This document shows positions 3,391 to 44,535 of a stretch of 53,188 nt of DNA, piece by piece; position 1 is the first letter of the stretch; every line of letters starts with the position of its first letter. Under the pieces are notes generated by a model, which was not told where the DNA came from, ran no database searches, and saw only the letters and a program-made list of their open reading frames with translations. The position numbers were made by a program, and so were the translations under genes. This DNA comes from a virus (taxonomy: Duplodnaviria; Caudoviricetes). The stretch covers positions 1 through 53,188 of the IMG/VR virus record IMGVR_UViG_3300032236_000387; one strand, written 5' to 3'.

Positions 3391-3407
3391 GTGTAATCGG
3401 ATTACAC
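3391..3407. promoter_or_regulatory. 17-bp palindrome GTGTAATC-G-GATTACAC, site 1
   Basis: Perfect inverted repeat (21 bp with AA/TT flanks); five copies in the genome. Confidence 0.85.
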
Positions 3408-3422
3408 TTTGTACCCGGTAGG

Positions 3423-3439
3423 GTGTAATCGGATTACAC
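3423..3439. promoter_or_regulatory. 17-bp palindrome, site 2, abutting the TerL start codon
   Basis: Identical to site 1, 32 bp downstream. Confidence 0.85.
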
Positions 3440-3440
3440 C

Positions 3441-4871
3441 ATGGGTGCAGTAGAGGCCATCCTTTCTGATCCGAATCTGCCGCAGGAATTCGGCAGATTG
3501 AACCAATACGACCAGATCTATTTCAACTGGCGCTCGCAGTGGTATCAGAAGGCGCACAAGCACCAGATCGAACCTGACGGTGACTGGTGGAATGTCTTTC
3601 TTTTATTGGCCGGGAGGGGAGCGGGCAAGACCAGAGCAGCAGCGGAAGCATTGGGTGAATGGGCCTGGGAGCAGCCGGGGTCGCGCTGGCTCGTTTCAGC
3701 GCCAACCAGTGGTGACGTCAGGGGAACCTGCTTCGAGGGCGATAGCGGCCTGCTGAACGTCATTCCAAAGGAATTGGTGGCGGACTACAACAAGTCGCTC
3801 CATGAGATCAAACTGGTCAATGGATCGTTCATCAAGGGAATTCCAGCCAGCGAGCCTGAACGGTTCCGCGGTGGCCAATGGCATGGTGCTTGGTGCGACG
3901 AGTTGGCCGCGTGGGAGTATTTGCAAGAAGCGTGGGACCAGATTCAATTCGCGGTGCGGTTGGGTAAGCGAACGCGCATCATTGCATCGACGACGCCAAA
4001 GCCTAAGCCATTGATCATGGAGCTAGTGGGCAGGAACGGCGACGATGTTGCCGTGACGATGGCGAGTACCTACACGAACATTGCCAATCTGGCTCCGACG
4101 TTCCAAAAGCAGATTCTGCAGTACGAGGGCACCAAGCTAGGACGGCAGGAGATCCACGCCGAGCTGATCGACGTCGAGGAAGGTGGCATCGTCAAGCGCG
4201 ACTGGTTCCGGTTGTGGCCAGACGGCAAACCGTTCCCGAAGCTGGAATACATCATCCAGAGCTACGACTGCGCCACGTCGGACAAGACATACAACGACCC
4301 GACCGGCTGCATTACGCTGGGCGTGTTCAAGCCTATGGATGGCGGTATGAGCGTAATCATTCTGGACTGCTGGCAAGACCACCTGCAGTACCCGGATCTG
4401 CGCCCTAAAGTAATCGCCGAGTACGAAATGGTGTTCGGGCAAGGAAAAGACAAAAAGCTGGTTGATCTGGTGCTGGTCGAAGACAAGAGCGCAGGCATCA
4501 GCTTGATTCAGGACTTGCAACGGGCGCACCTTCCGGTCCATGCCTACAATCCGGGCCAAGCAGACAAGGTGCAGCGGTTAAGCATTGTGGCCAACATCAT
4601 TAAGGCTGGCCGGGTTTGGGTGCCGGAGTCGGGCGTGAGGCGCGGTTATGTAAGGGACTGGGCTGAAGGGATGGTCACCCAGATCTGCAGCTTTCCAGAG
4701 GGGGCAACACACGATGAATTCGTGGACTGCATCAGTCAGGGGCTGCGGTATCTAAGGGATGCCGGGTGGATCAGCATTGATGCGCCACCGAGGGAGGAGA
4801 TCGAGCAGGAGGACATCACGGATGCCGAGATCTACAACCTGAAGAACAAGGCCAATCCATATGCACAATGA
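3441..4871 (+). CDS. terL: Terminase large subunit
   Basis: Walker A AGRGAGKT, Walker B AWCDE, coupling motif STTPK, nuclease domain (SYDCA...HDEFVD). Confidence 0.95.
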   Translation: MGAVEAILSDPNLPQEFGRLNQYDQIYFNWRSQWYQKAHKHQIEPDGDWWNVFLLLAGRGAGKTRAAAEALGEWAWEQPGSRWLVSAPTSGDVRGTCFEGDSGLLNVIPKELVADYNKSLHEIKLVNGSFIKGIPASEPERFRGGQWHGAWCDELAAWEYLQEAWDQIQFAVRLGKRTRIIASTTPKPKPLIMELVGRNGDDVAVTMASTYTNIANLAPTFQKQILQYEGTKLGRQEIHAELIDVEEGGIVKRDWFRLWPDGKPFPKLEYIIQSYDCATSDKTYNDPTGCITLGVFKPMDGGMSVIILDCWQDHLQYPDLRPKVIAEYEMVFGQGKDKKLVDLVLVEDKSAGISLIQDLQRAHLPVHAYNPGQADKVQRLSIVANIIKAGRVWVPESGVRRGYVRDWAEGMVTQICSFPEGATHDEFVDCISQGLRYLRDAGWISIDAPPREEIEQEDITDAEIYNLKNKANPYAQ

Positions 4872-5070
4872 CGGTATGTTCGTGGATATGTCGGACAAGT
4901 CCTACGTTAAGGTGGTGCATCTGGATGGGGTGCGGATTACGGCGTTTGACAATGTATTCGAGATTACGGCCAAGCCGGGTTCGGACATCTGGGAGCAGTA
5001 CGCGGTGCAGATGCTGAAGGATTGGATCAGGTGGCGCAAGAAGCAGTTGCTCGAGTCGGAAGGCCAATAG
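4861..5070 (+). CDS. Hypothetical protein (69 aa)
   Basis: Fills the gap between TerL and the next gene. Confidence 0.55.
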   Translation: MHNDGMFVDMSDKSYVKVVHLDGVRITAFDNVFEITAKPGSDIWEQYAVQMLKDWIRWRKKQLLESEGQ

Positions 5071-5082
5071 GATAATCGCGGT

Positions 5083-8000
5083 ATGAGCGACAAGCACTTG
5101 ATGGGGATCAACGTGACGACCGACCGCAAGGCTGGCCGTCGTTACGCTGATCTGATCGTGGATGGCCACAAGGCGTATGAGTCGCGCAATGGAGATACGC
5201 TTAGACCGTATGTAGGCAAGCGTGTGGCCATTGTCCGGACCGGAGAGGGACCAGCAAAGGCCATTGGTGAAGTGACGGTCGGCGAGCCGATGGTGGTGAA
5301 CCAAAAGCAGTTTAGGGGCATGGAGCATCACCATCTGGTGCCAGAGGGATCGTCGTTTGACATTAAGACGCCGACCAAGCATTTGTACCCGATGCATAAC
5401 CCGGTGCGCTATGAGCAGGAATACGATGTTGGGCACGGGATCATTGCCCGGAAGGTGCATAAAGCAGAAGGCGGATCAGTGAGCGAACCAAAGAAGACCG
5501 TCAAGGCGTACAAACTGTTCCGGGTCCATCCCAAGCATCCCGGCAAACTGTTCCCGCTGTTTGTGGACTCGAACACTCCGGTGGCCATGAACGAGTGGGT
5601 GGCCGCGAAGGAAGGCGAGATGGCCAATGGCAAGGTCAAGTCGAAGCTGGGGCCGCTGGCGTACAGGCCGGGATGGCACGCTGGGGATTTGCCAATTGCC
5701 ACGCACATCGGGGAGAAGTCGCACAAGGATCTGAAGGCACCCGACCGCAGGCCAGCAAACCATGCATGGGCCGAGATCGAGATGCCCGATGATGTGGATT
5801 GGCAGTCGGAAGCGAACAAGCGCGGCGTGAACGCTAAAGGCAAGTTCATTCCGAGTCGGGCGCACATCACCGATCAACTACCTCATGAGGGGCACTATCG
5901 GTACAAGACCAACCCGAACATGACGGGGAACTGGCTCATTGGCGGGGCCATGAAGGTCAACAAGGTGCTGACCGATGACGAGGTCAAGAAGATCAACGAG
6001 CAAGCCGGTGCAAAGGATTTGCCAAGGGCGGCACCGTTTGATGCCAAGCATTTTGGGTTTAGGGATGGCGGCGTAGTGGGGCCAGAAGAGTGGGTGGCCG
6101 AGGAGCACGTCAATCATCATCACATCGTACATAAGGCGGAAGGCGGACTAATGGATACTTCACTGGCGCAGATGCGTATGGCGTTATCGCGCCAGAGCAA
6201 TCCCAAGATGATGGACAGTGTTGGGTTGAATGAAGCTCTGGACATGAAACCTAAGATGTTCATCAATCCCAACTCGAAGACGCAGGGCAATCCTGACGTG
6301 GGTGGGGTTCCAAGTAACGCCAGCCTGCCGATTGGCGGAATTGATGCCAATCCGATGGCTCAAGGCCAACAGATGGTTCCTAAAGCACCGCAGGCGCAAG
6401 CGCAGCCACAAAGTCCGCCGGGTAATCCTGCGCCGATGACGGGATCGCCACCGGATGGTCAACAGGGCGGACCCAAAGGAAATCTATTGGCTCTGACCTC
6501 ACAAGGGCAAGCATTGAATGCGTTGAAGCCAGCGCCAATGGCTGATGGTGGATTAGCCAAGTTCAAAGCCGCGATGATGTTCAAGCGCGATCAGGCAAAA
6601 CACCGGATGTACGCAAAAGGCGGGAAGGTTTACGAAGAGACTGAAAAGCCCAAGCGCATCAAGTTCAACGCAAAAGGTCATGGCGGTGTCAGCGGGATTG
6701 TGGTGCCGCGTCATATGTGGGAAGGAAGCCAGCACGCTGAAGGGATGGAGAAGGTCAACGCGGCAAGGGCTGCGGTTTATGGAGGTGAGAAGCGTTCACC
6801 GTTGGGGATCAATCAAGTGGGTCGTATTCACCGGGATACGCTCAATGATCATTTCAAGAAACCAATTGAGCAGCAGCAGGCCGATGAGCAGGCCGCGTTA
6901 GAACGCTTACGGAAAGCCAAGCATATTGGCCGCGGGGCGAACACGCTGGATGAAAGCGAGAAGCTAGACACGGTCAGGCATGAGCGCGATGCACAGGGCC
7001 GTACCCATGTGGGGTATGCGTCTAAGGGTGTGGCGGGGCATTCGTTATACACGTCAGGACACGGTGACGAGCAAGAGCACCACGTCATCAATACCTGCCC
7101 CGGCCAGACGGTCGGATGCGGCGGTGGTATTGATAAGAGCGGAGTTGTGGATACCAGTAAGGGAACGTGTTTTGCGCCCAATGCGGAGTCGCAGTATGTA
7201 AACGCGGCGGTACGTCGGGCAAGCCATGAGCAGGCCAAGCATGACCCGGCAATGACGCGGGATTGGATTTTGGCGCACACTGGGTCATTGAGGGGTGTGT
7301 CGAACACCGCGGACAAAAAGAATGTCCGGACGTTGTTCAGGCCAAACGTGGTGGACGAAACTGACGTGTCATCGCGTCATGCAATTCGGCATTTGAATGA
7401 GCAACGTAAAGCTGCAGGCAAACCACCGATTATTGCCAACTCGTATGGCAAGACCACGGAACTGCATGACCCGGAGAACGGGTATTACGTTACGCACTCG
7501 AACGTCGGGCCTAAGACCAAACACGGCAAATCAATTGAAGAGAACATTGGGCGAGACAAGCAGCGTGTTCGATCAACGATTCTGGCCGCGGACGCCAGCG
7601 GAAAAAACTTTACAAACGAACAGGGTAACAAGACGCCACCCAAGGGTTCGTACATGGTGACCGATGTGAAGCGTGGATCGCCGTTGTCAAAAGCGATGCA
7701 GGAACACATTACGCACGCCAAGTATTGGTCAACGCCAAAACCCGTAGAAAGCCTCAGTGACGAGGAAAAAGCTGAAGGTGAAGAGAACCATTACAACGGT
7801 CATGGGAAGCCTACAACGCCGGACAAGTCGCACTATGGGCATACGACGCTGAATGGGCAGCGGTACGACTACCAAAAGCAACACGTTTTGCACCCAAGGC
7901 TGGTGCAGGTTGGAAAGAATCCAGATGGTAGTGATCACATGATCCCTACCGATTCACGGTTTAAGGATGAGGATTTCCTTCCGAAAAATCGGTACATGAC

Positions 8001-8391
8001 CAAGAATGGCAAGAAAGCTGGTCATATCTTGATGACTACGCCAACAGAATCAACCAGTAATTTGGCCCATCACACGTCGTTTACGCACCATGTAAACGAT
8101 AATCATATAGAGTATGCCAAAAACCATAACGGGGAGTATGAGATTGATCCCCCAGCACAACAGGAAGCCAGCATGGGCAAAGAGTACGTTGCTCCACAAG
8201 AAGTGAAGATTGCAAAGAGAGTTGTGAAGAAAGCCATGGGTGGATCAATTGAATCCGATGAGGGATTAAATGACGACAATTTCCATGCATTCCCAGAGCG
8301 CAATTTTGCAGCGCAACACCACTTGGCGCATCGTGCGGGGATTCAGGACATCACTGATATGCCCCATGAGCACCTGCACAATAAAGGCTGA
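5083..8391 (+). CDS. Large multidomain (polyvalent-type) protein: ASCH-like domain, uncharacterised domain and GP88/radical-SAM-like domain, separated by xAxGG motifs
   Basis: ASCH motif YADLIVDGHKAYESR; Cys triad TCPGQTVGC...GTCFA with FRPNVVD and NSYGKT; six GG motifs; true start may be ATG 5083. Confidence 0.7.
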   Translation: MSDKHLMGINVTTDRKAGRRYADLIVDGHKAYESRNGDTLRPYVGKRVAIVRTGEGPAKAIGEVTVGEPMVVNQKQFRGMEHHHLVPEGSSFDIKTPTKHLYPMHNPVRYEQEYDVGHGIIARKVHKAEGGSVSEPKKTVKAYKLFRVHPKHPGKLFPLFVDSNTPVAMNEWVAAKEGEMANGKVKSKLGPLAYRPGWHAGDLPIATHIGEKSHKDLKAPDRRPANHAWAEIEMPDDVDWQSEANKRGVNAKGKFIPSRAHITDQLPHEGHYRYKTNPNMTGNWLIGGAMKVNKVLTDDEVKKINEQAGAKDLPRAAPFDAKHFGFRDGGVVGPEEWVAEEHVNHHHIVHKAEGGLMDTSLAQMRMALSRQSNPKMMDSVGLNEALDMKPKMFINPNSKTQGNPDVGGVPSNASLPIGGIDANPMAQGQQMVPKAPQAQAQPQSPPGNPAPMTGSPPDGQQGGPKGNLLALTSQGQALNALKPAPMADGGLAKFKAAMMFKRDQAKHRMYAKGGKVYEETEKPKRIKFNAKGHGGVSGIVVPRHMWEGSQHAEGMEKVNAARAAVYGGEKRSPLGINQVGRIHRDTLNDHFKKPIEQQQADEQAALERLRKAKHIGRGANTLDESEKLDTVRHERDAQGRTHVGYASKGVAGHSLYTSGHGDEQEHHVINTCPGQTVGCGGGIDKSGVVDTSKGTCFAPNAESQYVNAAVRRASHEQAKHDPAMTRDWILAHTGSLRGVSNTADKKNVRTLFRPNVVDETDVSSRHAIRHLNEQRKAAGKPPIIANSYGKTTELHDPENGYYVTHSNVGPKTKHGKSIEENIGRDKQRVRSTILAADASGKNFTNEQGNKTPPKGSYMVTDVKRGSPLSKAMQEHITHAKYWSTPKPVESLSDEEKAEGEENHYNGHGKPTTPDKSHYGHTTLNGQRYDYQKQHVLHPRLVQVGKNPDGSDHMIPTDSRFKDEDFLPKNRYMTKNGKKAGHILMTTPTESTSNLAHHTSFTHHVNDNHIEYAKNHNGEYEIDPPAQQEASMGKEYVAPQEVKIAKRVVKKAMGGSIESDEGLNDDNFHAFPERNFAAQHHLAHRAGIQDITDMPHEHLHNKG

Positions 8392-10823: not shown

Positions 10824-10956
10824 TCAAGAACAGAAGTCGGTGCTGGTAAAACAGCACAAGCGTCTGGCACAAGGGGAAAAGCTTGATGGAACCAACATGG
10901 GTCCAAAGGGTGAGAAAGCTAAATCAGGAGGTCTATCACACGCCAAGAAAAAATGA
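10810..10956 (+). CDS. Small basic protein (48 aa) carrying a KAKSGGL motif
   Basis: AAGGAG RBS, ATG at 10810. Confidence 0.65.
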   Translation: MATSDQEQKSVLVKQHKRLAQGEKLDGTNMGPKGEKAKSGGLSHAKKK

Positions 10957-11132: not shown

Positions 11133-11185
11133 CCATGCGCTGAAAAGCGCGTTTATGCACCTGAAATATGGTGTGAGGAAAGAAA

Positions 11186-11638: not shown

Positions 11639-11647
11639 GGGTAAAAA

Positions 11648-12613: not shown

Positions 12614-12630
12614 ACTAAGGAACAAATACC

Positions 12631-14711: not shown

Positions 14712-14718
14712 AGAACGG

Positions 14719-14761
14719 GACCAAGGGGGTGTAATCGGATTACACCCTCTTGGTTCTTTTT
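14719..14761 (+). terminator. Rho-independent terminator after the capsid gene; the top of the stem is palindrome site 3 (14729-14745)
   Basis: gaccaagggggtgtaatc-g-gattacaccctcttggttc followed by a T-tract. Confidence 0.8.
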
Positions 14762-14796
14762 GAAACCTGAGTGGTTCAAGCCACAAGGAATCTAAA

Positions 14797-25046: not shown

Positions 25047-25727
25047 ATGGCACAATCTGGATTTACCCCAATATCGCTGTACTACAGCACAACGGCTTCT
25101 GCTGTTCCGGTCAACACTAACTTGGCCAATGGCGAGTTGGCAATTAACATTACCGACGGGAAACTGTATTACAAAAATAACTCTGGGGTAGTTACCCTTC
25201 TAGCTTCTAGTGGTACAGCTTCGTTTCCGGGCGCAGGCATTGCCAATTCAACCGGATCGGCATGGGGTACATCTTATTCAACTAGCGGAAGTGGTACAGT
25301 CGTTGCGCTTACAACAAGTCCTTCGTTTACCACTCCAGTATTAGGTACGCCAACATCGGGAAACCTTGCCAACTGTACAGCAGACGGTACAAACTCGGTC
25401 GGTTACTTAAACATCCCGCAGAATGCCCAAACTGGCAGCTATACGACTGTACTTTCCGATGCGGGTAAGCATATTTACCATGCTTCAGGGGCTGGTGCTG
25501 CAACGTACACAATTGCGGCAAACTCTTCTGTTGCGTATGTAATTGGAACAGTGATCTCGTTTGTAAACCTGTCAACAACATCAATCAGCATTGCAATCAA
25601 TACTGATACCATGTACTTGGGCAACAGCGGAACTACGGGCACCCGGACATTGGCTCAATACGGAGTTGCTAACGCGCTTAAAATCACCAGCACCGCTTGG
25701 ATCATCACCGGGACTGCTTTGACATGA
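25047..25727 (+). CDS. Short tail fibre/adhesin subunit
   Basis: LANGELAINITDGKLYYK N-terminus; PVLGTPTSGNL; C-terminal SYTTVLSDAGK...AWIITG domain. Confidence 0.8.
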   Translation: MAQSGFTPISLYYSTTASAVPVNTNLANGELAINITDGKLYYKNNSGVVTLLASSGTASFPGAGIANSTGSAWGTSYSTSGSGTVVALTTSPSFTTPVLGTPTSGNLANCTADGTNSVGYLNIPQNAQTGSYTTVLSDAGKHIYHASGAGAATYTIAANSSVAYVIGTVISFVNLSTTSISIAINTDTMYLGNSGTTGTRTLAQYGVANALKITSTAWIITGTALT

Positions 25728-26959
25728 GTGGCATTCTTAGCGCTTTTGTAGGTGGGGGATATGGATCAAAACCCGGTGCCCCTACGATTGGGACTGCAAC
25801 TGCGACTGGCTCATCAACTGCAACGGTGGCTTATACAGCCCCTGCAAACAATGGCGGTCTTGTAATTACTAGCTACACGGCAACATCAAGTCCGGGTAGC
25901 ATCACAGGAACATTGAACCAAGCCGGATCAGGAACAATTACGGTTTCTGGGTTGAGTCCGAGTACGTCTTACACTTTTACCGTAACTGCAACCAATGCCG
26001 CTGGAACAGGACCGGCAAGTGCGGCAAGTAATAGCATTACTACCAGTGCGGTTACAGGAGCAACATTTACAAATACCGCCGGAACTTTTTCATTTATTGT
26101 TCCTGCTGGAGTCACCTCAATCTCAGCGATTGTTCAATCTGGTGGAGGTTCAGGCGCTTGGGGAGCTTCGGGTGGCGGTGGTGGCGGCGGCGGTGGTGGT
26201 GGTTTGGCTTTTTATAACAATTTGACAGTTTCTTCGGGGCAATCCTATAGTTACACCGTTGGAGGAGGTGGTGCTAGGCCAACTGCTTGCAACAATGGAA
26301 ATGACGGTGGAGACAGTAGATTTAATCTTAATACTTGCGGTTCGCTTTATATATTAGCCGTTCGAGGCGGTGGAGGCGCTACTGCTGCAAACGGCGGTTG
26401 CGGAGGTTCGGGTCGAGGCGGTAACTACAGCCCAATTTCTGGTGTTTGTGCTAGTAAATATGGTTCTGGAACCGGAGGAGTTGGAGGAAATAGAACTGGG
26501 GGTCTAAGCGGCGGCGGAGGTGGTGCTTCCGGGGGAGGACTTCAAGCCTGCGGAAATTATACTAACAGCGGCGGTATTGGAGGAACTTACACGACTCTAA
26601 CCGGAAACGGTCGCGCTGCTGCTTGTAGCTCTGGTGGCGCAGGAGGTGGATCAACTGCTAGTGGAGGCGGCGGTGGTGGTGGAACCGCGTTTGGACAATT
26701 TGGCAGGGGAGCAACTGGAGGTGCAAATTCAGGCGGCCCTGACGGAACCGGAGGCAGACCGGGTAGTAGCGGATTTGCTGGTTACACGGGCAGTTGCAGC
26801 ACTTGCCCAACTTTTTCAGGAGCGCGTGGGGGGGATTATGGCGGTGGCGGCGGCGGAGGTAGCAATTCCGTTGGTCCCGGAGGCGCTGGAGCAGGCGGTT
26901 ATGTAAGGATTATTTACCCCGGAACCACGAGACAGTGGCCTACGACTAATATTCCTTAA
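25724..26959 (+). CDS. Fibronectin type III plus glycine-rich receptor-binding/fibre protein
   Basis: PGAPTIGTATA...YTFTVTATNAAGTGPASAASNSIT (FN3), then a Gly-rich domain with scattered Cys; ATG at 25724. Confidence 0.8.
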   Translation: MSGILSAFVGGGYGSKPGAPTIGTATATGSSTATVAYTAPANNGGLVITSYTATSSPGSITGTLNQAGSGTITVSGLSPSTSYTFTVTATNAAGTGPASAASNSITTSAVTGATFTNTAGTFSFIVPAGVTSISAIVQSGGGSGAWGASGGGGGGGGGGGLAFYNNLTVSSGQSYSYTVGGGGARPTACNNGNDGGDSRFNLNTCGSLYILAVRGGGGATAANGGCGGSGRGGNYSPISGVCASKYGSGTGGVGGNRTGGLSGGGGGASGGGLQACGNYTNSGGIGGTYTTLTGNGRAAACSSGGAGGGSTASGGGGGGGTAFGQFGRGATGGANSGGPDGTGGRPGSSGFAGYTGSCSTCPTFSGARGGDYGGGGGGGSNSVGPGGAGAGGYVRIIYPGTTRQWPTTNIP

Positions 26960-26985: not shown

Positions 26986-27459
26986 ATGAAATTGTTTATC
27001 AAAGTTGTTAACGGGCAAACCGTTGACCATCCTGTTTTTGAGGAAAATTTGCTGCAGGCATTCCCAGACGGAATTCCTAGTGAATACGAACCTTTTGAAA
27101 GAATCCAACCAACACAAATTCCAAAGACATATGAAAAATCAATTTGTGAATATGTAAAAAACAACAACGGGGTCTGGAGTGATTCTTGGTCTATTCGAGA
27201 AATGACGGACGAAGAAAAGCAAATCAAAACCAACGAGCTAATTGAAAACGCAGAAAGTTATAAAAGATTTCGGTTGACAGTTGCAAACCGAAACGCTGTT
27301 GTGGCAATGGCCAACTCTGATTTGGCTGCCCTATCCGCTTGGAATTTGTGTATTGAAAAATTAAAAGCATATTCCGTTATATCGGTAGACCCCCTTATTC
27401 CTCCTTTGCCAAAATTACCAATCATGGACGAGTCTGGAAAATGGGTTGAGCCAGAATGA
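26986..27459 (+). CDS. Putative tail fibre assembly chaperone
   Basis: Follows the fibre genes; WSIREMTDEEK motif. Confidence 0.5.
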   Translation: MKLFIKVVNGQTVDHPVFEENLLQAFPDGIPSEYEPFERIQPTQIPKTYEKSICEYVKNNNGVWSDSWSIREMTDEEKQIKTNELIENAESYKRFRLTVANRNAVVAMANSDLAALSAWNLCIEKLKAYSVISVDPLIPPLPKLPIMDESGKWVEPE

Positions 27460-28106
27460 GCGATTCAATTTTTAATATTGAACATTTTGTTTATTTTCCA
27501 TCAAGCATTTCAACCGTTGATGGGTTTGGTTTTTTAGATTTAGTGAGCGCTGTTGCGAATGAAGAGCTTGAAAAAACAAAAATTCAACATCCAAAGTTAG
27601 ACGAAATCTACCCAGTACGCATAACAGGAAACTTGGTTGAAAACGCTCGCTTGCAAGAATTTAATGATTTTGTTGCTACATCCGCTTGGCAAGTCTTGAC
27701 TCATCAAGGCTATGCAACCGAAAACATGGGAATGTTTTTAAGCGAAATATGGGTTCAAGAGCACCACAAGCATTCTTTAATGGAACAACACGTCCATGGC
27801 TCAGGATTGCAAATGATTGGATTTTACTTTTTGAATGCGCCAGAGAATTGTTCTAAAGCTATTTTTCACGACCCGCGTCCCGGTAAGGTTCAAACAAACC
27901 TTCCAGAAAAAGATGTCTCTCAAGCCACTTTTGGTAGCAACATGGTAAATTTTTCTCCAAAACCGGGAATGTTACTGTTGACCAATTCTTGGCTTCCGCA
28001 TTCGTTTACTCGTCATGCATCAGAAGAGCCTTTGTTGTTTGTGCATTTGAACCTTGGGGTTCAATTTGGCATTAGACCATCTACGCAGTCGGCAGAAGTT
28101 ATTTAG
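27456..28106 (+). CDS. TIGR02466/2OG-FeII_Oxy_5-like double-stranded beta-helix oxygenase, paralog A
   Basis: WVQ...HVH...GFYFL...FHDPRP...PKPGMLLLTNSWLPHS. Confidence 0.8.
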   Translation: MSDSIFNIEHFVYFPSSISTVDGFGFLDLVSAVANEELEKTKIQHPKLDEIYPVRITGNLVENARLQEFNDFVATSAWQVLTHQGYATENMGMFLSEIWVQEHHKHSLMEQHVHGSGLQMIGFYFLNAPENCSKAIFHDPRPGKVQTNLPEKDVSQATFGSNMVNFSPKPGMLLLTNSWLPHSFTRHASEEPLLFVHLNLGVQFGIRPSTQSAEVI

Positions 28107-30235: not shown

Positions 30236-30252
30236 GTGTAATCGGATTACAC
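30236..30252. promoter_or_regulatory. 17-bp palindrome, site 4, between lysis and tail-adaptor genes
   Basis: GTGTAATCGGATTACAC. Confidence 0.85.
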
Positions 30253-30949: not shown

Positions 30950-30950
30950 T

Positions 30951-35016: not shown

Positions 35017-35017
35017 A

Positions 35018-37392: not shown

Positions 37393-37394
37393 AA

Positions 37395-38525
37395 ATGCCT
37401 AATAGTCTTACTCAGTCGTCGCAAACTAAATCGACGTGCGCCCCGCAGTACTACAACGATTACCTGCAAGGGATCGTTCAAAAGGGTCAACAGGCAGAAT
37501 GTAAAGCTCAGTATGTTGGAGCCACGCCTCTCCAACAGAAAGCTTTTACGGACATCTGTAAGACCGCTGGAGCGCAAGCGCCAAATTATGCGACTGCTCA
37601 AGGATATGTTGGGTGCGCTGCAGGAAAAGACATTTCTGGTGCCGCCACTCCATTCCTGACTGCCGCAACCTCGGCAAGTCCATTGTGCGCGGCCAAGCCA
37701 CTAATTTGCCAATCTTCCAATCTAAATTTAGGTGAAGTCGCTGGGCAGTACATGAACCCATTTATCAGATCTGCCGTACAGCAGATGTCGGATATTGGGC
37801 AGCGGAACATTATGCAGAACATTGACCCGGCAGCAATGGCCGGGTTGGTTGGTTCTGGGCAGTTTGGCTCGCAACGCGGTGCCCAAGTTATGGGGCAAGT
37901 TAACGCAAACGCAGAGCAGGATCTGAATAGTCAGATTGCCAATATGCTTTCGTCCGGGTACGGGCAAGCATTACAGGCCGCTGGAACCAAACAAGGTGCT
38001 TTGACCAACCTTGCAAACACCACGGCAACGGCGCAGCAGGCACAAAATGCTGCGGAAAATACTGCGGCTACCACGGCTGCAAATGCTGCTGCAGCGTGCG
38101 CTACGGCGAAGGAACGAGCGGGTCTAGCAGCAGGCACGTTGGCCGGTCAAGCGGCGGCAACCAACATCAATTGCATTAATGCGCTGGCTACGCTTGGCGC
38201 TCAGTGTCAGACCATTAAACAAAACGCCCAGTGTTACGACTTCAACAAGCTTTCAAAAGAAGCTGCGTTGATGCAAGGCGTCAGTGTTCCGACATCAACC
38301 AAGACGACGATGTGTATGTCTCCGTTGTCTACGGCGGCATCTCTGGCATCGATTGCAAAAGGTGTGGCCTGTAGCAAGGGGTTGTCTTGTGCGTTATGTA
38401 AAGCGTGGTGCAAAGTTTCTAGCATTTTTGGATGTCATGCCAGAGGCGGTCTGATTACGGCAGGCGGTGCCGTGGGTTGCCGATCTACTCGTAATCTTGG
38501 CGGTCTACCGCGTGGGGGAAGATAA
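37395..38525 (+). CDS. Putative DNA ejection/internal virion protein (Ala/Gln-rich)
   Basis: YMNPF...GQFGSQRG...SGYGQAL pattern; unusually many Cys. Confidence 0.7.
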   Translation: MPNSLTQSSQTKSTCAPQYYNDYLQGIVQKGQQAECKAQYVGATPLQQKAFTDICKTAGAQAPNYATAQGYVGCAAGKDISGAATPFLTAATSASPLCAAKPLICQSSNLNLGEVAGQYMNPFIRSAVQQMSDIGQRNIMQNIDPAAMAGLVGSGQFGSQRGAQVMGQVNANAEQDLNSQIANMLSSGYGQALQAAGTKQGALTNLANTTATAQQAQNAAENTAATTAANAAAACATAKERAGLAAGTLAGQAAATNINCINALATLGAQCQTIKQNAQCYDFNKLSKEAALMQGVSVPTSTKTTMCMSPLSTAASLASIAKGVACSKGLSCALCKAWCKVSSIFGCHARGGLITAGGAVGCRSTRNLGGLPRGGR

Positions 38526-40369
38526 TGGCCGAGAAACAGGATTATTCAGCCGCGCTAGGTGGACTTGATAACTCTAAGCTTCCACTCTATGGGCGCGGTG
38601 ATAAGGATCTCGAAGAGCTTCAGAAAGCTCGGGAAGACGCCCTATCCGCGCTCCAGAAGCGATATGAGCAACCCAACTGGTTCAAGGTAGCGGCAGGGTT
38701 TGCCAAGCCGCAGCTAGGCGGTTTTGCGGCGTCTCTGGGTAGTGCTGCCGAGGCGCTCGGGGAGAATGTCGAGCAACAGCGTGCCCAAGAACTTCCGATT
38801 GCTCAGATGAAGCTGGCGATCAAGCAGGGCAATATGCTGCTGAAGTCTCAAGCAGATGTGGCTGATGACATCAAGAAGTGGCGAGAGTCGCACCCCGGTC
38901 AAACGCCATCGGCTCAACTGGTTGGTGAGTGGGCTGCACGCGCACCTGAGTCGAACACGGTTAAGTCTCTGCAGGAAGAACTGAATTTTCAGCAAAAACA
39001 AGCACAGCAGACATTGGAGCGCATCAACCACAAGAGGGCTGCGAATATTCCGTTGGATGAGCAGGATCGAGCATTCCTTGCTCAGAAACCTGAAGGCCAG
39101 CCACGGGCAGAAAGGCCACAAGAGGCTCCTGCAATTCCGTCCGGACCTGCCGCGACTTCTGCGATAACCCCGCCCAAGCTTGCGATGGAACCAGTCAATG
39201 TCACTGAACCATCAAAACCTGAAGTAAAACAGGAAGAAAAAGCATCAGCCGTGCTTCCTAGTGGGGCACGGGTTAACAAGGATGTTCTTGGTTTGCATCA
39301 GCAGGGTATTCCGATCATCAGTAACATCCGGACCCAAAAAGAACAAGATGCGCTCAAGCACCATCAAGATGAAAATGGCAACTGGTACACCAAAGAAGGC
39401 CGACCAGTATCGGATGTTACAAAGCATTTGACTGGTGATGCGATTGATCTTGATCCAAAGAAAAATCTCAACGCGGAGCAACGAAAGCTACTCGAAGAAA
39501 ATGGATGGAAGCAGCCCAACCCCAAGGGAGATGCGAACCACTGGGAGCGTGTGAAGCCAGCCAAACTTGCAGAGGCCAAGCCTGCACAAGTAAAACTCGA
39601 TGAAAATAAACCGCCCCAGTTTTATCCGCCGAGTTTGAAGAAGCCAGACATTACCGGACTTGGTCCGGACGATGTGGCCATGAGAACTGCTGGGTACAAG
39701 AAAAGCGCAGAAGTGATGGAGACTCCTTACGCGGAAAAAATGGCCAGCTTGGCTCCTCTTGTTTCTGGGAATGACTATACCCGTGTCAAAAATTCATACG
39801 ACACTGCGATTGGAATGATTGAGAACAACCAAGATATGGCAAAAAAAGTTTTTGCCATGTTGCGTCAAGATCCAATCAAGGCTGCTCTTAACGAAGGTAT
39901 CGGTGTTCATGCCGGGTCGATCACGGCCAACATTAACTTACCTGTCAAGGCGTTTTTAGATGCCGGTCTAAGCGAAAGAGAAAAGCACTACGCAGATAAA
40001 TTGTTTAGTTCTTTGGTGAACATTGCAACGGCCAACTTACGAGCGCAAGGCGTATCAATGGGCAAGGTGCCGCAGCAGGAATACATGAAGGCAATGTCTG
40101 GGTTTGTGAACCCGGATCTGACTGCTCCTGCTGCTTTGAATATGCTTCATCACAGCCGTGCTGATTTTGATCAGAGCAAAGAGTATTACGACATTGTCAT
40201 GAAGGAAATGAGGGACAAAGTCGATATGTCACACACTTCGACTCCATACTCAGACATTCATCATAATTCGTCCGACTTGGCCAAGATTCACAAGAAGTAC
40301 TCTGCGATTCACAAACGATATGATGATGACTATCAGAATGCGTTAAGACCGCAAGGAAACAAACCATGA
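38525..40369 (+). CDS. Internal virion protein with a peptidase M15-like (Zn peptidoglycan hydrolase) domain
   Basis: ISNIRTQKEQDAL...TKHLTGDAIDL...DANHWE (H-x6-D...H). Confidence 0.7.
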   Translation: MAEKQDYSAALGGLDNSKLPLYGRGDKDLEELQKAREDALSALQKRYEQPNWFKVAAGFAKPQLGGFAASLGSAAEALGENVEQQRAQELPIAQMKLAIKQGNMLLKSQADVADDIKKWRESHPGQTPSAQLVGEWAARAPESNTVKSLQEELNFQQKQAQQTLERINHKRAANIPLDEQDRAFLAQKPEGQPRAERPQEAPAIPSGPAATSAITPPKLAMEPVNVTEPSKPEVKQEEKASAVLPSGARVNKDVLGLHQQGIPIISNIRTQKEQDALKHHQDENGNWYTKEGRPVSDVTKHLTGDAIDLDPKKNLNAEQRKLLEENGWKQPNPKGDANHWERVKPAKLAEAKPAQVKLDENKPPQFYPPSLKKPDITGLGPDDVAMRTAGYKKSAEVMETPYAEKMASLAPLVSGNDYTRVKNSYDTAIGMIENNQDMAKKVFAMLRQDPIKAALNEGIGVHAGSITANINLPVKAFLDAGLSEREKHYADKLFSSLVNIATANLRAQGVSMGKVPQQEYMKAMSGFVNPDLTAPAALNMLHHSRADFDQSKEYYDIVMKEMRDKVDMSHTSTPYSDIHHNSSDLAKIHKKYSAIHKRYDDDYQNALRPQGNKP

Positions 40370-41325
40370 CCGATCAAGAAAAGGAAGATCAAGAGGCCGC
40401 TGAAGCTGCTAACGAGTATTTTCGGGAACAACATCCTCATCACGCTGAAAACAACAAGAATGTTTATTCCGGAATGTCTTTTGAAGACAAAAAGGAAGAG
40501 CCAAAAAAAGAACCTGCTCCTGACTGGATGGTGCCTGCGGGTGCCGCAACTGGCGCTGCTGCAGTTCACACCGATGCACTTCGTCGTTTTCTAAGTGGAG
40601 TTGCAAAGCCAGCCGAATCAGTCTACGCGCCGGTAAATGTTCAACCGCGGTACAGTGCTCCTCGCGCAGAACCAGCAATGGGTGGGCTTAGTTCTGTCGA
40701 GTTCGAGAGCAATGTTGACAAGATCATGCATAGCTTGAGGGGCGAAGGGCAACCCAGCGGTGAACAGAAGCGTAAAGGTGCCAACTGGAAGACCAACCGG
40801 GAAGCTCTGGCAACTGAGCACAATCTGAAACAACCCGGCGCTGGGCAGGCAATCGTGAATGCCGGTGAAATGGCTCCAACACGAGGTGGCCTTGCAGTTC
40901 CAGAACACGTCGCATATGAGATCGAGGAAGAGGAATTGCGGCGTCGGGCAGTAGAGCAGGCAAGGCGCGAGGAAGCTGCAGCGTTAGCTAAAGCACAAGC
41001 AGAGGCCAGATCTGCCGAGACGGCACAAATGAGAGCGGCTGCCGAGGCGAAAGCTGCTCAACAAGGGAAAGCACTTGGTGTTCTCAAAGGTGCGGCCAAG
41101 GTTGGTTTAGGCGCTCTTGGCGGAGCGTTTGCAGGCAAAGACTTTTACGATGCCTACCAAGAGTACAAGGCCAAAGGGTACAGCGACGAAATGATTTCCA
41201 AGCTTCTATCTGGAGCAGGTGGAACCTTAATGATGGTTCCAACTCCATTCACTGAAGTTGGAGGGGCTGCTTTAATGGGGGCTGGGATGGCGTATCCCCA
41301 CGTTGCGAAACGCCTACGGCAGTAA
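40366..41325 (+). CDS. Putative internal virion protein with a C-terminal Gly/Ala hydrophobic region
   Basis: Last gene of the structural operon. Confidence 0.65.
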   Translation: MTDQEKEDQEAAEAANEYFREQHPHHAENNKNVYSGMSFEDKKEEPKKEPAPDWMVPAGAATGAAAVHTDALRRFLSGVAKPAESVYAPVNVQPRYSAPRAEPAMGGLSSVEFESNVDKIMHSLRGEGQPSGEQKRKGANWKTNREALATEHNLKQPGAGQAIVNAGEMAPTRGGLAVPEHVAYEIEEEELRRRAVEQARREEAAALAKAQAEARSAETAQMRAAAEAKAAQQGKALGVLKGAAKVGLGALGGAFAGKDFYDAYQEYKAKGYSDEMISKLLSGAGGTLMMVPTPFTEVGGAALMGAGMAYPHVAKRLRQ

Positions 41326-41392
41326 ACCAGACGTACAGCATCGCCACAAGTACAAACAGAAACCAGTATTTCACGATCTCTCCTCGGTATTT

Positions 41393-41419
41393 CCCCCGGC
41401 TGGTGCCGGGGGTTTTTTT
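41393..41419 (+). terminator. Rho-independent terminator at the convergence point
   Basis: CCCCCGGC-TGGT-GCCGGGGG-TTTTTTT. Confidence 0.9.
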
Positions 41420-41640
41420 CACTTGAGCTTGGGTCTGATTTCTTTGATTTTTGTGGCCACCAAGTGGTTGTACTCTTGGGCAATGGACACGCAGGTTTCA
41501 AGCTCTTTCGCTTCTATTCTTGGTTTGGCCTTCTCGATGAAAAGGTTGGCCAACTTGAATAGATCCTCTTCGAGAAAGTTGTAGTTCTCGATGAGGTGAG
41601 CCTCGCGGAATACCTCGTTAACTTCATCCTTTGTCAGCAT
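41419..41640 (-). CDS. Hypothetical protein (73 aa, MLTKDEVNEV...)
   Basis: GGAG RBS upstream of the ATG at 41640. Confidence 0.65.
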   Translation of the reverse strand: MLTKDEVNEVFREAHLIENYNFLEEDLFKLANLFIEKAKPRIEAKELETCVSIAQEYNHLVATKIKEIRPKLK

Positions 41641-42430
41641 ACTGATCTCCAAAATCGTGTTTCAATTTCCACAGTTTCAATAGGCACTGGAACATTTCCC
41701 AGCCTTTTCGTAGCTTCTCTTCCGGCCACTCAAAGACAACAACCAGACCCGGATGAGTCACCGATGCGAAGACGTTAGCGCACCGGGCATGAGACAAGTT
41801 AAGACCATGCCGGTAGGCAGCTAACTGCATCAGGTTCTCGTCATAGGCGTTGATTTCATCGTCGGGGCCAAATTCCTTGGTCTTGGCATCAACGACAATC
41901 CCGACCGGCGCTGTTTCACTTTGGACGCAGTGCAGGTCAACTTTGCCGCCGTACCCCATGGGGCTGGCAAACGACTTCTCAACTTTCCATTCCTCGAACG
42001 GATGGGTTCCAAAATGATCAAACACGCTTTCTTCAAAAGCTTTCGCAATTTCGACGTGTTCGACCTTACGGTTACCGGAGTACCATTTTTCAATCGACTC
42101 ATGAACTCTGGTTCCCCGCTCTGCTGCGCTTTTTCCTGTTTCTTTTGAGTCCGCCTTAATACGAGCGATCAGGGACTTCTCAGTCTCGTTAGGGGTCCGC
42201 GGCAGGGTCAGAGCAGCGAGAAGCATTTGTTCGAGCTTCCACTCCTCCAGACCCGGTTTGTGCAGCAGTCTGTTGATCGTGGTGACCGATGGCACCAGAT
42301 TCATCTTGCGTGCATCACGCAGCGTTGTAGGGCGGTTTGAACCGTCTTTAGCCAGCACGGTGTACTGAGGGGAGCCATCCCCCCCGTACCAATGAGCCGA
42401 GTCGAACGATCTTGCGATGATGGTGGTCAT
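41624..42430 (-). CDS. PD-(D/E)XK (RecB/Cas4-like) exonuclease
   Basis: PSVTTI...RGTRVH...E...YGGKVDL...VDAKT...QLAAYR. Confidence 0.85.
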   Translation of the reverse strand: MTTIIARSFDSAHWYGGDGSPQYTVLAKDGSNRPTTLRDARKMNLVPSVTTINRLLHKPGLEEWKLEQMLLAALTLPRTPNETEKSLIARIKADSKETGKSAAERGTRVHESIEKWYSGNRKVEHVEIAKAFEESVFDHFGTHPFEEWKVEKSFASPMGYGGKVDLHCVQSETAPVGIVVDAKTKEFGPDDEINAYDENLMQLAAYRHGLNLSHARCANVFASVTHPGLVVVFEWPEEKLRKGWEMFQCLLKLWKLKHDFGDQYADKG

Positions 42431-42795
42431 GCAGCCTTTCTCCCCGGACGTTTCTTCGGAGTCCCATCCAGTTTGTAACCGTAGGGAGCCTCAAGGCTGA
42501 AAGCTGCACAATCCAAAATTTCAACCAGCATTTCTTCATCCACAGAAGCTTCATACAGGCGCTGGGCCATCAAATAACCTTCTAGCACCCAGATCTGGCG
42601 TATGGCGTCTTCGCGTGAAAACTGTCGGCCAAGTTGCAGATCGAAGGATGAAGGATCAACGCAAGCACTCATGCCCTTGATGGTGTAACCGTTTTCCAAA
42701 GTCAGGATACACAGCGTGCTGCGCCCATCTGGCAGAACCAGATAGGACTCGTCTGCAATTTTGGATTCAATAAGTTCGATAGTGACCTTGTTCAT
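42427..42795 (-). CDS. Gp49-family protein, Tad1-like anti-defence nucleotide sponge
   Basis: TLCILTLENGYTIKGMSACVDPSSFDLQLG...IWVLEGYL matches the Gp49/Tad1 pattern as I recall it. Confidence 0.65.
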   Translation of the reverse strand: MNKVTIELIESKIADESYLVLPDGRSTLCILTLENGYTIKGMSACVDPSSFDLQLGRQFSREDAIRQIWVLEGYLMAQRLYEASVDEEMLVEILDCAAFSLEAPYGYKLDGTPKKRPGRKAA

Positions 42796-42804
42796 TTTTT
42801 TTCC

Positions 42805-43437
42805 TCAAAAAGGGATATCAGAATCTTCGTCTTCGTCCACCCTAATTAGGGTGTTTTTTTGTGGCTTGCCAATCTTCTCCCATTCAGGCGACGAAGAGAT
42901 CTTGGCCTTCAGATTGTCACTGAACGTCTCGAACAGCGTCAGATCAGGTTCCTGAAGGTTGAAGATCTCGTTCGCATTGATGGCCTGCGGTAGGCCGTTC
43001 TGTTTGATAATGGCAGGGACTGGTGTCACGCCTTTGGCGTTCGAGTAGATGTTCCCGTTGTTTCCCTCACTTTCGATGATGTTCAACATACACCACGCGC
43101 CTAGAACATTTTTGAGATCGAACCGGCGCATTTCCTCCTGCGTGAATGGCTTCCCACGCCACGACTGAAGGTCGAGTCGAAGGTTGGCTTTCTCAGACCA
43201 CGAGAGGGTGTAGTTCTTGAAGATGGCAAACGAGCGACCGTCCATCATCTGCAATGGCTGTCCACTGTCGTCTGTACCATGAATCTCCCAGCCAATCATG
43301 ATTTTGTGCTGGTACTTCACCTGACCCATGTACTCGCTTTTCTGCGTGCCCAGATCGATAATCCGATAGCATCGAGCGAGGTGCAAACCGGGTGGGCAAC
43401 GCTCAAACTGACCACCACTTTCAACGATAAAACTCAT
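42805..43437 (-). CDS. Putative single-stranded DNA-binding protein
   Basis: ARCYRIIDLGTQ...YTLSWSEKANLR; acidic DEDEDSDIPF tail like the SSB C-terminus. Confidence 0.7.
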   Translation of the reverse strand: MSFIVESGGQFERCPPGLHLARCYRIIDLGTQKSEYMGQVKYQHKIMIGWEIHGTDDSGQPLQMMDGRSFAIFKNYTLSWSEKANLRLDLQSWRGKPFTQEEMRRFDLKNVLGAWCMLNIIESEGNNGNIYSNAKGVTPVPAIIKQNGLPQAINANEIFNLQEPDLTLFETFSDNLKAKISSSPEWEKIGKPQKNTLIRVDEDEDSDIPF

Positions 43438-43491
43438 GGTTTTTCCTTAAAAAACGTCTACTTAGACTGAATCCGGTCAGATGACCGTGAA

Positions 43492-43526
43492 CGAAGTATA
43501 GCACAAATCAAATTCTGTGTTAGACT
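43492..43526. promoter_or_regulatory. Back-to-back divergent extended -10 promoters (minus TGcTATACT, plus TGtTAGACT) with a degenerate operator TCAAAT-N5-GTTAGA
   Basis: Located at the strand switch between the SSB-like and Cro-like genes. Confidence 0.6.
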
Positions 43527-43548
43527 GTGATCACAGAACGAGGTGACC

Positions 43549-43749
43549 ATGACGCTACACGACTACTTCACAGAAGAGCCTTACGGGGCAAAAAAGGAGA
43601 TGGCTGACTATCTAGACATCACACCAACGTGGCTTGGGCTGTTGATCCGCAAGGCGCGGCGTCCATCTGCAGAGCTTGCGAAACGGATTGAAAAAGCTAC
43701 GCAGGGGTTGGTTCCTGCGTCAGAATTGCGGCCCGACTTGTTTAACTAA
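43549..43749 (+). CDS. Cro/YdaS-like HTH transcriptional regulator
   Basis: KKEMADYLDITPTWL...RPSAELAKRIEKATQGLVPASELRPDLF. Confidence 0.85.
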   Translation: MTLHDYFTEEPYGAKKEMADYLDITPTWLGLLIRKARRPSAELAKRIEKATQGLVPASELRPDLFN

Positions 43750-43758
43750 AGGAAGACG

Positions 43759-44535
43759 ATGAAAGTTCAGATTGATTCGATACGGATTGATGGTGGCACG
43801 CAGTGCCGGGTAGTGATCGACCAGCCTACGGTCTATCAGTACGTTGAGGCCATGAAGGAGGGAGACGAATTTCCCCTAATTGAGACAGTGTTTGATGGGT
43901 CTACTCACTGGTTGACTGACGGGTTCCATCGTTATCACGCGATGAAGCTGATCGGCATCAAGCAGGTTGATGTTAAGCACACACAAGGTACGCAGCGTGA
44001 CGCTCAGATCGCTGCTTTGTTTGCCAATGCTAAACATGGTAAGCCACTGACCAACGAGGACAAACGCAACAAGGTCAAGATGGCGTTGGAAATTGACGGG
44101 TTTGACGACAAGTCCGACCGGGAGATCGCCACGCTATGTGGTGTGTCTGCGCCCTTTGTTGCTTCGATTCGCAACCCGAAAGTTAAAGAGAAGCAGGATC
44201 AGAACCGCGAAAAGAGCATCAAGGCGAAGGTTGAAAAGGATCAAGGGTGTAATCCGATTACACTCAAAGAGACGATTCGGGAGCCAGAGGAAGGTTGCAA
44301 CCCTGATGATGAGGAAATTTTGGCGTCTGAATTGGCGATGCAGGCCGATCAAGATGCGATGTACAAGCTTCTGGAATCGGACGATGCCCTGAAGACCGCC
44401 TACGACGAGATCAAGCGATTGAACCTAGTTAAGGCCGGTCTAGAGGCAAGGATCGCTGGTTTAATGAACGAGAAGAACGAAGCGATCAAGATGGTCAAGA
44501 GTCTTCAATCTCAGTTGGATAAACGTAAAAAATGA
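43759..44535 (+). CDS. ParB-like protein (ParB/Srx N-terminal domain, HTH, coiled coil)
   Basis: LTDGFHRYHA (GxxRxxA), ANAKHG, SDREIATLCGVSAPFV HTH. Confidence 0.8.
   Translation: MKVQIDSIRIDGGTQCRVVIDQPTVYQYVEAMKEGDEFPLIETVFDGSTHWLTDGFHRYHAMKLIGIKQVDVKHTQGTQRDAQIAALFANAKHGKPLTNEDKRNKVKMALEIDGFDDKSDREIATLCGVSAPFVASIRNPKVKEKQDQNREKSIKAKVEKDQGCNPITLKETIREPEEGCNPDDEEILASELAMQADQDAMYKLLESDDALKTAYDEIKRLNLVKAGLEARIAGLMNEKNEAIKMVKSLQSQLDKRKK
44247..44263. promoter_or_regulatory. 17-bp palindrome, site 5 (central C), inside the parB-like gene
   Basis: GTGTAATCCGATTACAC, translated within GCNPITL. Confidence 0.8.

Follow-up and report, generated by a model that had tools for sequence, protein, structure and literature searches.

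The window analysed here is the whole 53,188-nucleotide (nt) stretch of IMG/VR record IMGVR_UViG_3300032236_000387, a complete caudoviricete virus record with direct terminal repeats, corresponding to a chromosome of about 53 kb. It encodes a ParB-fold protein of 258 amino acids on the plus strand (43759–44535), and a 17-bp perfect palindrome, GTGTAATC-S-GATTACAC, occurs exactly five times in the window, one copy lying inside this gene. Copy 1 (3391–3407) begins 2 nt past the stop codon of the Sf6-type small terminase gene terS (2907–3389, plus strand), and copy 2 (3423–3439) finishes 1 nt ahead of the ATG (3441) of the large terminase gene terL (3441–4871, plus strand); together, the two copies fill the 51-nt gap between terS and terL. 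Copy 3 (14729–14745) is located between the stop of the capsid gene (14711) and the next gene (14797), and copy 4 (30236–30252) between the stop of a holin gene with three transmembrane segments (30232) and an SU10-type adaptor gene (30305). These four copies are centred on G on the plus strand. Copy 5 (44247–44263), GTGTAATC-C-GATTACAC, is centred on C and encodes residues 163–169 (GCNPITL) of the ParB-like protein. Exact matches were found in none of 100 dinucleotide-preserving shuffles, the shuffle mean at three mismatches was 0.18, and a search of the window at up to three mismatches revealed no site beyond the five. An earlier reading made from the letters alone (hereafter the sequence-only reading) had described five perfect palindromes, four intergenic at late-module sites and one in a ParB-like reading frame, and both the words and their contexts were confirmed.

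The predicted fold and domain order of the 258-residue protein are those of ParB. In the AlphaFold2 model (mean predicted local distance difference test score 92.9), a ParB/Srx N-domain is followed by a helix-turn-helix (HTH) formed by helices 120–127 and 131–138, a long helix and a C-terminal helical hairpin, and the sole low-confidence stretch comprises residues 161–180. The layout along the chain is an N-domain from residue 1 to about 110, the HTH at about 119–138, the long helix, a disordered linker at about 164–183 and the hairpin at 184–257. Foldseek gave a probability of 1.00 to ParB, Noc, KorB and Srx, and the alignments with ParB bound to cytidine diphosphate, Noc (7nfu, 7ol9), ParB–parS and KorB (8qa9) extend over 137–149 columns covering the N-domain and the HTH. 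PHROG 1033, 'ParB-like partition protein', matches residues 1–136 at 9e-17. An exhaustive phmmer search yielded 14,539 clusters (50% identity) at E up to 1e-3 and 8,969 at E up to 1e-10, and a family profile built from 87 diverse members of this set matches the solved ParB chains 7o0n and 7bnk at E 4e-9 and 6e-9 (M. xanthus ParB, E 4e-9). In the profile alignment, TQxR corresponds to QPR and DGFHRYHA to GERRWRA. The motif G55-x-x-R58-x-x-A61 is present; among the 87 diverse sequences, G55, R58 and R17 never vary and Q15 hardly does. The GERRxRA form is not found, the motif reading D-G-F-H-R-Y-H-A with F56 and H57 nearly invariant. From mutant names in PDB titles only, we infer roles for Q52 and E93. 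Within the family, the N-terminal part is variable and the C-terminal part conserved. Even Acidovorax phage AP1 (OM049504), with an N-domain of another type, retains the C-terminal coiled coil; AP1 was rejected as a full relative, as it shares the replication module only and no perfect palindrome with arms of 7 or more occurs repeatedly in it.

Six-frame hidden Markov model searches of the window and three near-complete relatives detected no ParA (PF13614) and no tyrosine integrase (PF00589) (0/4 for each). The sequence-only reading, which had seen a ParB-like frame with a GxxRxxA motif and an HTH and no ParA or integrase, agrees with the profile, the model, the Foldseek alignments and these searches. 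An N-terminal ParA-binding peptide is also missing, as the fold begins at residue 2 and the protein contains no (L/F/I)G(K/R)G(L/F/I) motif, a definition taken from PMC12704722. Proteins of this kind are not rare: the same survey describes orphan proteins with the ParB-CTPase fold (CTP, cytidine triphosphate) as common on mobile elements and phages, with targets and roles mostly unknown, and the surveyed proteins bind CTP, ATP or GTP in a way that neither sequence nor AlphaFold3 predicts (PMC12704722). The window's protein resembles them in being an orphan, in its link to mobile elements and in keeping GxxR (PMC12704722). It shares with chromosomal ParB/Spo0J and parS the fold, the GxxR P-motif, the QxR motif and a palindromic site, and differs from them in having no ParA, no ParA-binding peptide, no GERRxRA and a different C-terminal domain. 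In B. subtilis, a parS lies inside spo0J itself.

The in-gene position of copy 5 recurs far beyond the window. Loci encoding relatives were gathered from viral and bacterial contigs (164 loci, 151 unique proteins), and a palindrome was counted as in-gene when it was perfect, had arms of at least 8 and an inner gap of up to 3, and was centred at nt 380–580 of the gene. Such a palindrome is present in 89 of the 151 unique loci, and the palindrome density reaches 3.31 per kb at nt 380–580 vs 0.119 per kb elsewhere in the loci, a 28-fold enrichment. One or two sites are found per gene. The words vary by lineage, being 16–17 bp long in the phage group and 23–33 bp in Planctomycetota, cyanobacteria and others. 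For instance, the relative MW202545.1 (57 kb) has zero copies of the window's word and eight copies of another 17-bp palindrome, TACTAGTC-N-GACTAGTA, two of which lie at the equivalent offset in its ParB-like gene. The in-gene palindrome thus appears to be the hallmark of a very large family. The closest bacterial carriers of the gene are metagenome-assembled genomes of Burkholderiales/Comamonadaceae, and three members (L073, L075 and L076) reside in large chromosomal contigs, probably as integrated prophages, two of which (L073 and L076) keep the in-gene site. In the window, the word encodes part of the disordered, low-confidence linker. Translation of this one DNA word gives GCNPIT in the window and L207 and GVIGLH in L156 and L200, and its central base is free to vary, the middle codon specifying Q, P, R or L; it follows from these two observations that selection acts on the DNA word and not on the peptide.

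The word changes with the residues at the start of the recognition helix. Position 131, the residue after V-S, tracks the outer bases of the half-site (Q with TAC, A/V with GTG, K with GAG, H with GTGG, R with GCG or TAG), and position 132 tracks the inner bases (P with ..AAT, S with ..AGT, H/K with ..GAT). Among 145 residues, residue 131 ranks first by summed mutual information with the half-site, residue 121 second and residue 132 eighth. Mutual information alone is confounded by shared ancestry, and control columns score high as well; descent was therefore controlled by stratifying pairs by identity over residues 1–110 and by taking disjoint nearest-neighbour pairs. In the 0.5–0.7 identity bin, pairs with the same residues at 131 and 132 share 7.24 of 8 half-site bases and other pairs 3.91, while seven control residue pairs, including residues 141–145, give 4.2–6.05 vs about 4. 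In the 0.3–0.5 bin, the control pair 62+68 scores as high as 131+132 (6.02 vs 2.48). Because of this control and the confounded mutual information, we rely on the disjoint nearest pairs (47 pairs): where residues 131 and 132 agree, the 8-nt half-site agrees too in 9 of 13 pairs, and where they differ, it agrees in 1 of 34 (Fisher 4.8e-6). Linkage alone would be insufficient to explain this, since residues 141–145, which are coded closer to the site, have no such effect. Pairs that are 80–92% identical over residues 1–110 yet differ at 131/132 (QS/QP, RS/QS, HP/HS) carry different words, which points to fast switching of specificity among close relatives. Conversely, L156, L200 and L207 are 43–57% identical to the window's protein, share its A/V-P dipeptide and carry its exact word. 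The fold alignment and the 131/132 co-variation together support recognition of the palindrome by the HTH that follows the N-domain, and the 17-bp palindromes are very probably the cognate binding or loading sites, a phage 'parS', of the 258-residue protein.

Co-variation of the recognition helix with the site had been proposed beforehand as a check on the pairing of the palindrome with the ParB-like protein, together with a search of host genomes for the word and the possibility that the small terminase binds it. The co-variation strongly supports the pairing, and the other two lines point the same way. The window's word is present in none of five bacterial genomes that carry relatives, nor in any of 401 genomes from the order to which the closest bacterial carriers belong; these are samples of the likely host order and not the true host, and in them there is no sign of a host repeat. 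As a binder, TerS was rejected: in three pairs of genomes that share a word, the TerS candidates, chosen by position only, have no homology or only 31–34 aligned residues, and the word does not track the candidate. The cro-like protein is 73–82% identical across six relatives with five different words.

To describe the copies outside the ParB-like gene, 15 further records of the phage group were fetched whole and orthologues were mapped with the window's proteins. An own word could be named in 16 of 17 whole or partial records including the window, and copies were counted at up to two mismatches. Each of the 16 records holds 3–11 copies of its own word, the reversed-word control giving 0–1, and 11 different words occur among them. 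The copies recur at the same places. Copies lie inside the ParB-like gene in 14 of 16 records, and 10 of the 14 records holding terL have one or two directly past its stop. In 9 of 16, a copy is found at the 3' end of the gp51848 orthologue or just past it, and 7 of 16 carry one in the tail-fibre gene, near where the conserved N-terminal part stops. Rarer places are past the portal gene (two records), inside the adaptor gene (two) and past the capsid gene (the window and G012). In the window and G005, copies are located between terS and terL instead of past terL, and the largest multiplicity of sites is found at the terminase genes, with two copies in the window and five in G005. Sites many kilobases away cannot follow a change of specificity through linkage, so selection must hold the distant copies in step with it. 

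Two of these records show further details. In G005, the terS–terL region (oriented 25661–25773) holds five tandem 16-bp sites with a 19-bp period and no central base, TACTAATT directly abutting AATTAGTA, and the in-gene copy is degenerate. The own word of G013 is CCGTAGTT-C-AACTACG, and about 9 nt past its site at oriented 121 there is a 7-N-7 copy of the window's word, TGTAATC-C-GATTACA, which may be left over from an earlier specificity or represent a second one. A separate invariant palindrome, ATGATGTC-N-GACATCAT, occurs in L032, L033, L034, L037 and L049 and in G001 (13104), G002 (11740) and G003 (26210), between the exonuclease gene and the gene in the CI position, some 1.3 kb ahead of the ParB-like gene (a placement verified in G002). 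It is constant although the ParB-site words of those loci differ, and the window has none at up to one mismatch.

Across IMG/VR, the window's exact word occurs in 21 stretches, 12 of which belong to relatives or family modules and hold it at recurring places: past terL (4), past the capsid gene (1), past gp51848 (1) and in or at the ParB-like gene (5). In the twelfth (L022, 4875–4891), a 92%-complete element, the word stands 3 nt past the primase stop; its ParB-like gene is of the AP1 type, the product being 33% identical to that of AP1 (E 9e-38) and matching the window's protein only weakly. Chance matches of the word in such a collection could number about 20, which is an estimate only. Four viral fragments (L006, L008, L017 and L025; records 17–30% complete) carry the window's exact word twice each, the copies in L006, L008 and L017 being 1,626 bp apart, with no match to the window's proteins and no detectable family gene.

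The sites in the window were also analysed in their transcriptional context. The bare word folds weakly (−9.1 and −9.8 kcal/mol, with 13 and 6 of 200 shuffles equal or better). Copy 3 lies at the tip of a 19-bp RNA hairpin on the plus strand (14717–14764, −29.9 kcal/mol, z −5.8) that is followed by UCUUUUU, and therefore the element doubles as a terminator-like element. The two sites ahead of terL can pair in RNA (3385–3445), forming a long hairpin of −25.1 kcal/mol (z −4.0) that stops 4 nt short of the terL ATG, and no evident Shine-Dalgarno sequence is seen between the second site and this ATG. A purely RNA-level role of the word is ruled out by the weak folding energies and the co-variation. 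Most sites are found within a polycistronic late operon, where they follow a stop codon and precede the next ribosome-binding site, without a promoter-like match, and four of the five window sites have no adjacent sigma-70-like match. In 9 of 16 relatives, a site lies about 60–130 nt upstream of a conserved promoter-like element. In the window this element, TTGACA-N17/18-GATACT, has four copies on the plus strand (658–687, 1357–1385, 52145–52174 and 52908–52937), with a palindrome, TCTAAC-N5-GTTAGA, between the hexamers; TCTAA-N7-TTAGA occurs in 1–5 copies in 14 of 17 genomes of the phage group, and in nine relatives and the window a conserved hairpin (CACTGCA..GCAGG) and then a ribosome-binding site come after the element. 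The TCTAAC-N5-GTTAGA element is probably the operator of another regulator, one acting on a middle or late promoter class.

Along the chromosome, the site clusters of the window are separated by 11.3, 15.5, 14.0 and 12.3 kb and are over-dispersed on the circle (P 0.003). In all eight genomes tested, the even spacing gave P values of 0.003 to 0.35, which come from related genomes and are not independent; a more even spread of the clusters round the circle than that of random points is only suggestive.

The genes around the ParB-like gene form a replication neighbourhood. A Cro/YdaS-like HTH gene (43543–43749, plus strand) lies directly upstream, with a divergent gene in the CI position before it (42805–43437, minus strand; PHROG 862, function unknown). 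The ParB-like stop is overlapped by a gene for a RadD-like superfamily 2 (SF2) helicase (44532–46055, plus strand) with ResIII and Helicase_C domains, whose C-terminal part contains an invariant four-Cys motif (CPxC ... CxxC, residues about 388–404). A Toprim-type DNA primase gene (48593–49459, plus strand) follows 4 kb further on. A helicase homologue on the same strand within 1.5 kb was found in 105 of the 134 unique loci having at least 1.8 kb downstream, with identity down to 26–28% in Planctomycetota, and the primase is present in 77 of the 151 unique loci. The ParB-like gene thus heads a deeply conserved module of ParB-like protein, SF2 helicase and Toprim primase. In loci without the helicase, the downstream gene encodes a DNA polymerase III beta clamp, a Prim-Pol/DUF3987 protein or an HTH_36 protein; others have a Dam methylase or an AbiEii gene. 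A further family member (L240; NZ_OW485608.1, 19123–20283) is located directly behind an HTH/Arc switch on a 55-kb linear Rhodovastum plasmid, which may be a phage-plasmid; downstream of this member is a gene for a DnaB-like helicase, and the 12 kb shown include no listed ParA. Two paralogous genes of 2-oxoglutarate (2OG)-Fe(II) oxygenases (PF13759) are present on the plus strand of the window, one in the late region (27456–28106) and one in the early region (49869–50540). They were rejected as TET/JBP-type enzymes, as they match PF13759 only and no Tet_JBP match is listed.

Based on these results, we propose with a probability of about 0.45 that the 258-residue protein serves the phage helicase-primase as a loader or origin marker of the ParB type, and that the further sites round the chromosome are additional places for loading. 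The initiator-like role is suggested by the deeply conserved operon that begins right behind the cro-like gene, the position of the initiator in lambdoid phages, and the balance shifts toward replication because of the conserved helicase-primase module and the in-gene site that marks the family. The in-gene copy would be the ancestral, family-wide site, and the other copies would be extra sites specific to the phage group, kept in step with the specificity of the protein. A dimer would bind the palindrome via its two HTHs, and the N-domains would then close or oligomerise. The bound protein may mark the phage DNA for the phage helicase and primase, acting as an origin-like loader, and the well-spaced dispersed copies would let it load all round the chromosome of about 53 kb.

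Lambda O offers a similar arrangement, as a sequence-specific DNA binder in the initiator slot after cro with a cis site midway in its own gene (PMC8508860). The two layouts share a variable DNA-binding N-terminal part, a cis site in linker-coding DNA, a conserved C-terminal part and an adjacent helicase gene. In contrast, lambda O has an unrelated fold, its origin contains four repeats and an AT-rich region and it has no dispersed copies, whereas the ParB-like genes have one or two palindromes and no AT-rich stretch.

Several observations weigh against the proposed loader role. The fold, the co-variation, the selection on the DNA word, the recurring positions and the synteny come from the in silico analysis itself, while binding, switching by a nucleoside triphosphate (NTP), helicase recruitment and origin function are what we infer from them. 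The mean A+T content of 30-nt bins near the site is 0.42–0.62 in 32 loci, with no AT-rich stretch alongside, and one or two sites with no iteron array are atypical for an origin. Pfam ParB_N (PF02195) has no match in the window and reaches 14 bits on one relative, and Pfam and NCBIfam give nothing at cut-off on the protein, the matches being AAA_23 (18.8 bits) and SbnI (12 bits). ParB-like CTP hydrolysis is doubtful because the Glu of GERR is replaced by a conserved Phe and the first Arg by His. The helicase neighbour is missing in 29 of the 134 loci, and the synteny of the module could stem from inheritance of one old module and not from direct coupling. As for the sites, 62 of the 151 unique loci have no perfect in-gene palindrome with arms of at least 8, extra copies within 10 kb are rare outside the phage group (of 97 unique loci whose gene holds a palindrome with arms of 7 or more, 17 have a further copy in the locus), and the complete relative G011 has no word within two mismatches. 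The residue-site rule is imperfect, with 4 of 13 same-residue pairs differing in site and 1 of 34 different-residue pairs agreeing. Finally, the other 9 of the 21 IMG/VR stretches with the exact word have no detectable family gene, in records that are fragmentary (5–53% complete).

Among the alternatives, a KorB/Noc-like organiser fares best, and we regard it as possible though rather doubtful. Here, an NTP-gated clamp would load at the palindromes and spread or slide, silencing, insulating or compacting the chromosome with no direct role in initiation; late genes, for example, would be held down early in infection or in a carrier state. The Foldseek matches to KorB (8qa9) and Noc (7nfu), the orphan state with no ParA found, the over-dispersed site clusters and the sites upstream of a promoter-like element in 9 of 16 relatives are all consistent with such a role, and single palindromes fit clamp loading better than origin melting. 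Noc is a chromosomal, membrane-targeting regulator of cell division; like the window's protein, Noc with its NBS sites in Bacillus and Geobacillus is an orphan ParB paralogue with many dispersed palindromes, and unlike it the window's protein is the product of a phage early gene and has a coiled-coil tail. KorB with the OB sites of RK2 is alike in its ParB fold and HTH, in odd-length palindromes dispersed on a mobile genome and in action away from a single par locus, and it silences long-range from dispersed operators (PMC11790492). However, KorB works with IncC, which is a ParA, and with KorA, whereas the window has no ParA found and no known partner of the KorA type; its protein also differs from KorB in the Phe at the catalytic Glu of GERR, in the helicase-primase operon that holds its gene and in the site inside that gene. 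An organiser leaves the deep conservation of the helicase and primase unexplained, as well as the distant members whose only site is in the gene. Moreover, most sites stand in the late operon without a promoter-like match, and the even-spacing P values, coming from related genomes, are not independent. The sequence-only reading had proposed a ParA-independent, KorB-like clamp: the orphan ParB fold is supported; a CTP-dependent clamp, late timing and packaging guidance are hypothetical, the GERR Glu being a Phe and four of the five sites having no promoter-like match beside them. That reading had missed the conserved helicase-primase module and the spread of the in-gene site through the family.

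We consider it improbable that the protein and its sites act as a plasmid-prophage centromere, in which the ParB-like protein and the dispersed sites would stabilise or position a plasmid form using host factors. Scattered sites of N15 Sop have an effect on late genes. N15 resembles the window as a phage genome with several scattered palindromic sites of the ParB family, and dispersed centromere-like sites are known in N15, RK2 and pSM19035 (PMC3235114); unlike the window, where no ParA was found, N15 has SopA, a ParA. A ParB homologue assisted by host factors was proposed for Serratia phage Eta (PMC7556043). In the phage group, no integrase was found in four of four near-complete genomes, the cro-like gene and the divergent CI-position gene form a repressor-type switch, and a family member lies behind the HTH/Arc switch of the linear Rhodovastum plasmid; the fast switching of specificity among close relatives also resembles incompatibility avoidance. 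Against a centromere stand the missing ParA and N-terminal ParA-binding peptide and the only putative lysogeny of this uncultured phage. Partition would also be needless for the members in probable integrated prophages (L073, L075 and L076), of which L073 and L076 nevertheless keep the in-gene site.

A guide for packaging or DNA modification appears quite unlikely. The sites beside the terminase genes, where site multiplicity is highest, would mark the packaging start or direct a modifying enzyme. ParB-like proteins near terminase genes ('ParB-Tls' loci) were proposed to direct modification during packaging (PMC6536676), and some phage dioxygenases require a ParB activator (PMC13229309), the window having two 2OG-Fe(II) oxygenase genes. 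The activators of thymine dioxygenases resemble the window's protein in being phage-encoded, in combining a nucleotide-binding domain with a C-terminal dimerisation part and in having no ParA; they have no obvious DNA-binding domain (PMC13229309), whereas the window's protein has an HTH and cognate sites. The oxygenases of the window likewise belong to another Pfam family than the ParB-activated dioxygenases, matching PF13759 with no Tet_JBP match listed. The ParB-like gene lies 12 kb from the terminase genes within the replication module, the family-wide site is in the gene and not beside the terminase, and the sites do not track the TerS candidate.

That the words are unrelated to the protein, being RNA hairpins or terminators, host-factor sites or TerS sites, is highly improbable: copy 3 tips a strong terminator-like hairpin, four copies stand just 3' of stop codons and the word may resemble LacI/GalR-type operators, but the bare word folds weakly, changes with the recognition-helix residues, is absent from the 401 genomes of the likely host order and does not track TerS.

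The protein with its sites thus belongs to a known kind, the orphan ParB-family proteins with dispersed palindromes; its features are unusual and testable, and a connection with replication initiation is plausible. Earlier work noted ParB-like genes in the replication regions of phages but did not analyse them (PMC4936722, PMC8508860). The main text of PMC12704722 contains neither 'palindrom' nor 'primase' and does not describe an in-gene site, a residue-site rule or the module, while its supplementary data may list the clade. Our literature search likewise returned no description of the in-gene site, the residue-site rule, the concerted site turnover or the module, and here too supplementary files may bear on this.

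The family offers a cognate site that can be read directly from each of its genes, a two-residue rule that tracks this site and a fixed association with a helicase and a primase. In the window's protein, Q-P or Q-S in place of A-P at 131/132 predicts a preference for TACTAATC or TACTAGTC. The concerted turnover of 3–11 sites between phages whose proteins are 80–90% identical (residues 1–110) provides a clean natural case of protein-site co-evolution. More tentatively, the large clade (at least 8,969 clusters at E up to 1e-10) may both recognise the origin and act as loader for a helicase-primase replicon of phages and other mobile elements. A ParB clamp gated by NTP would then serve as initiator and load at a palindrome in its own linker-coding DNA, the first two recognition-helix residues would largely fix its specificity, and in the phage group 3–11 sites would be re-targeted in concert. 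If the protein is indeed a replicon initiator or loader, this would be a new use of the ParB switch, and the family would provide a set of orthogonal protein-site pairs for DNA labelling or control.

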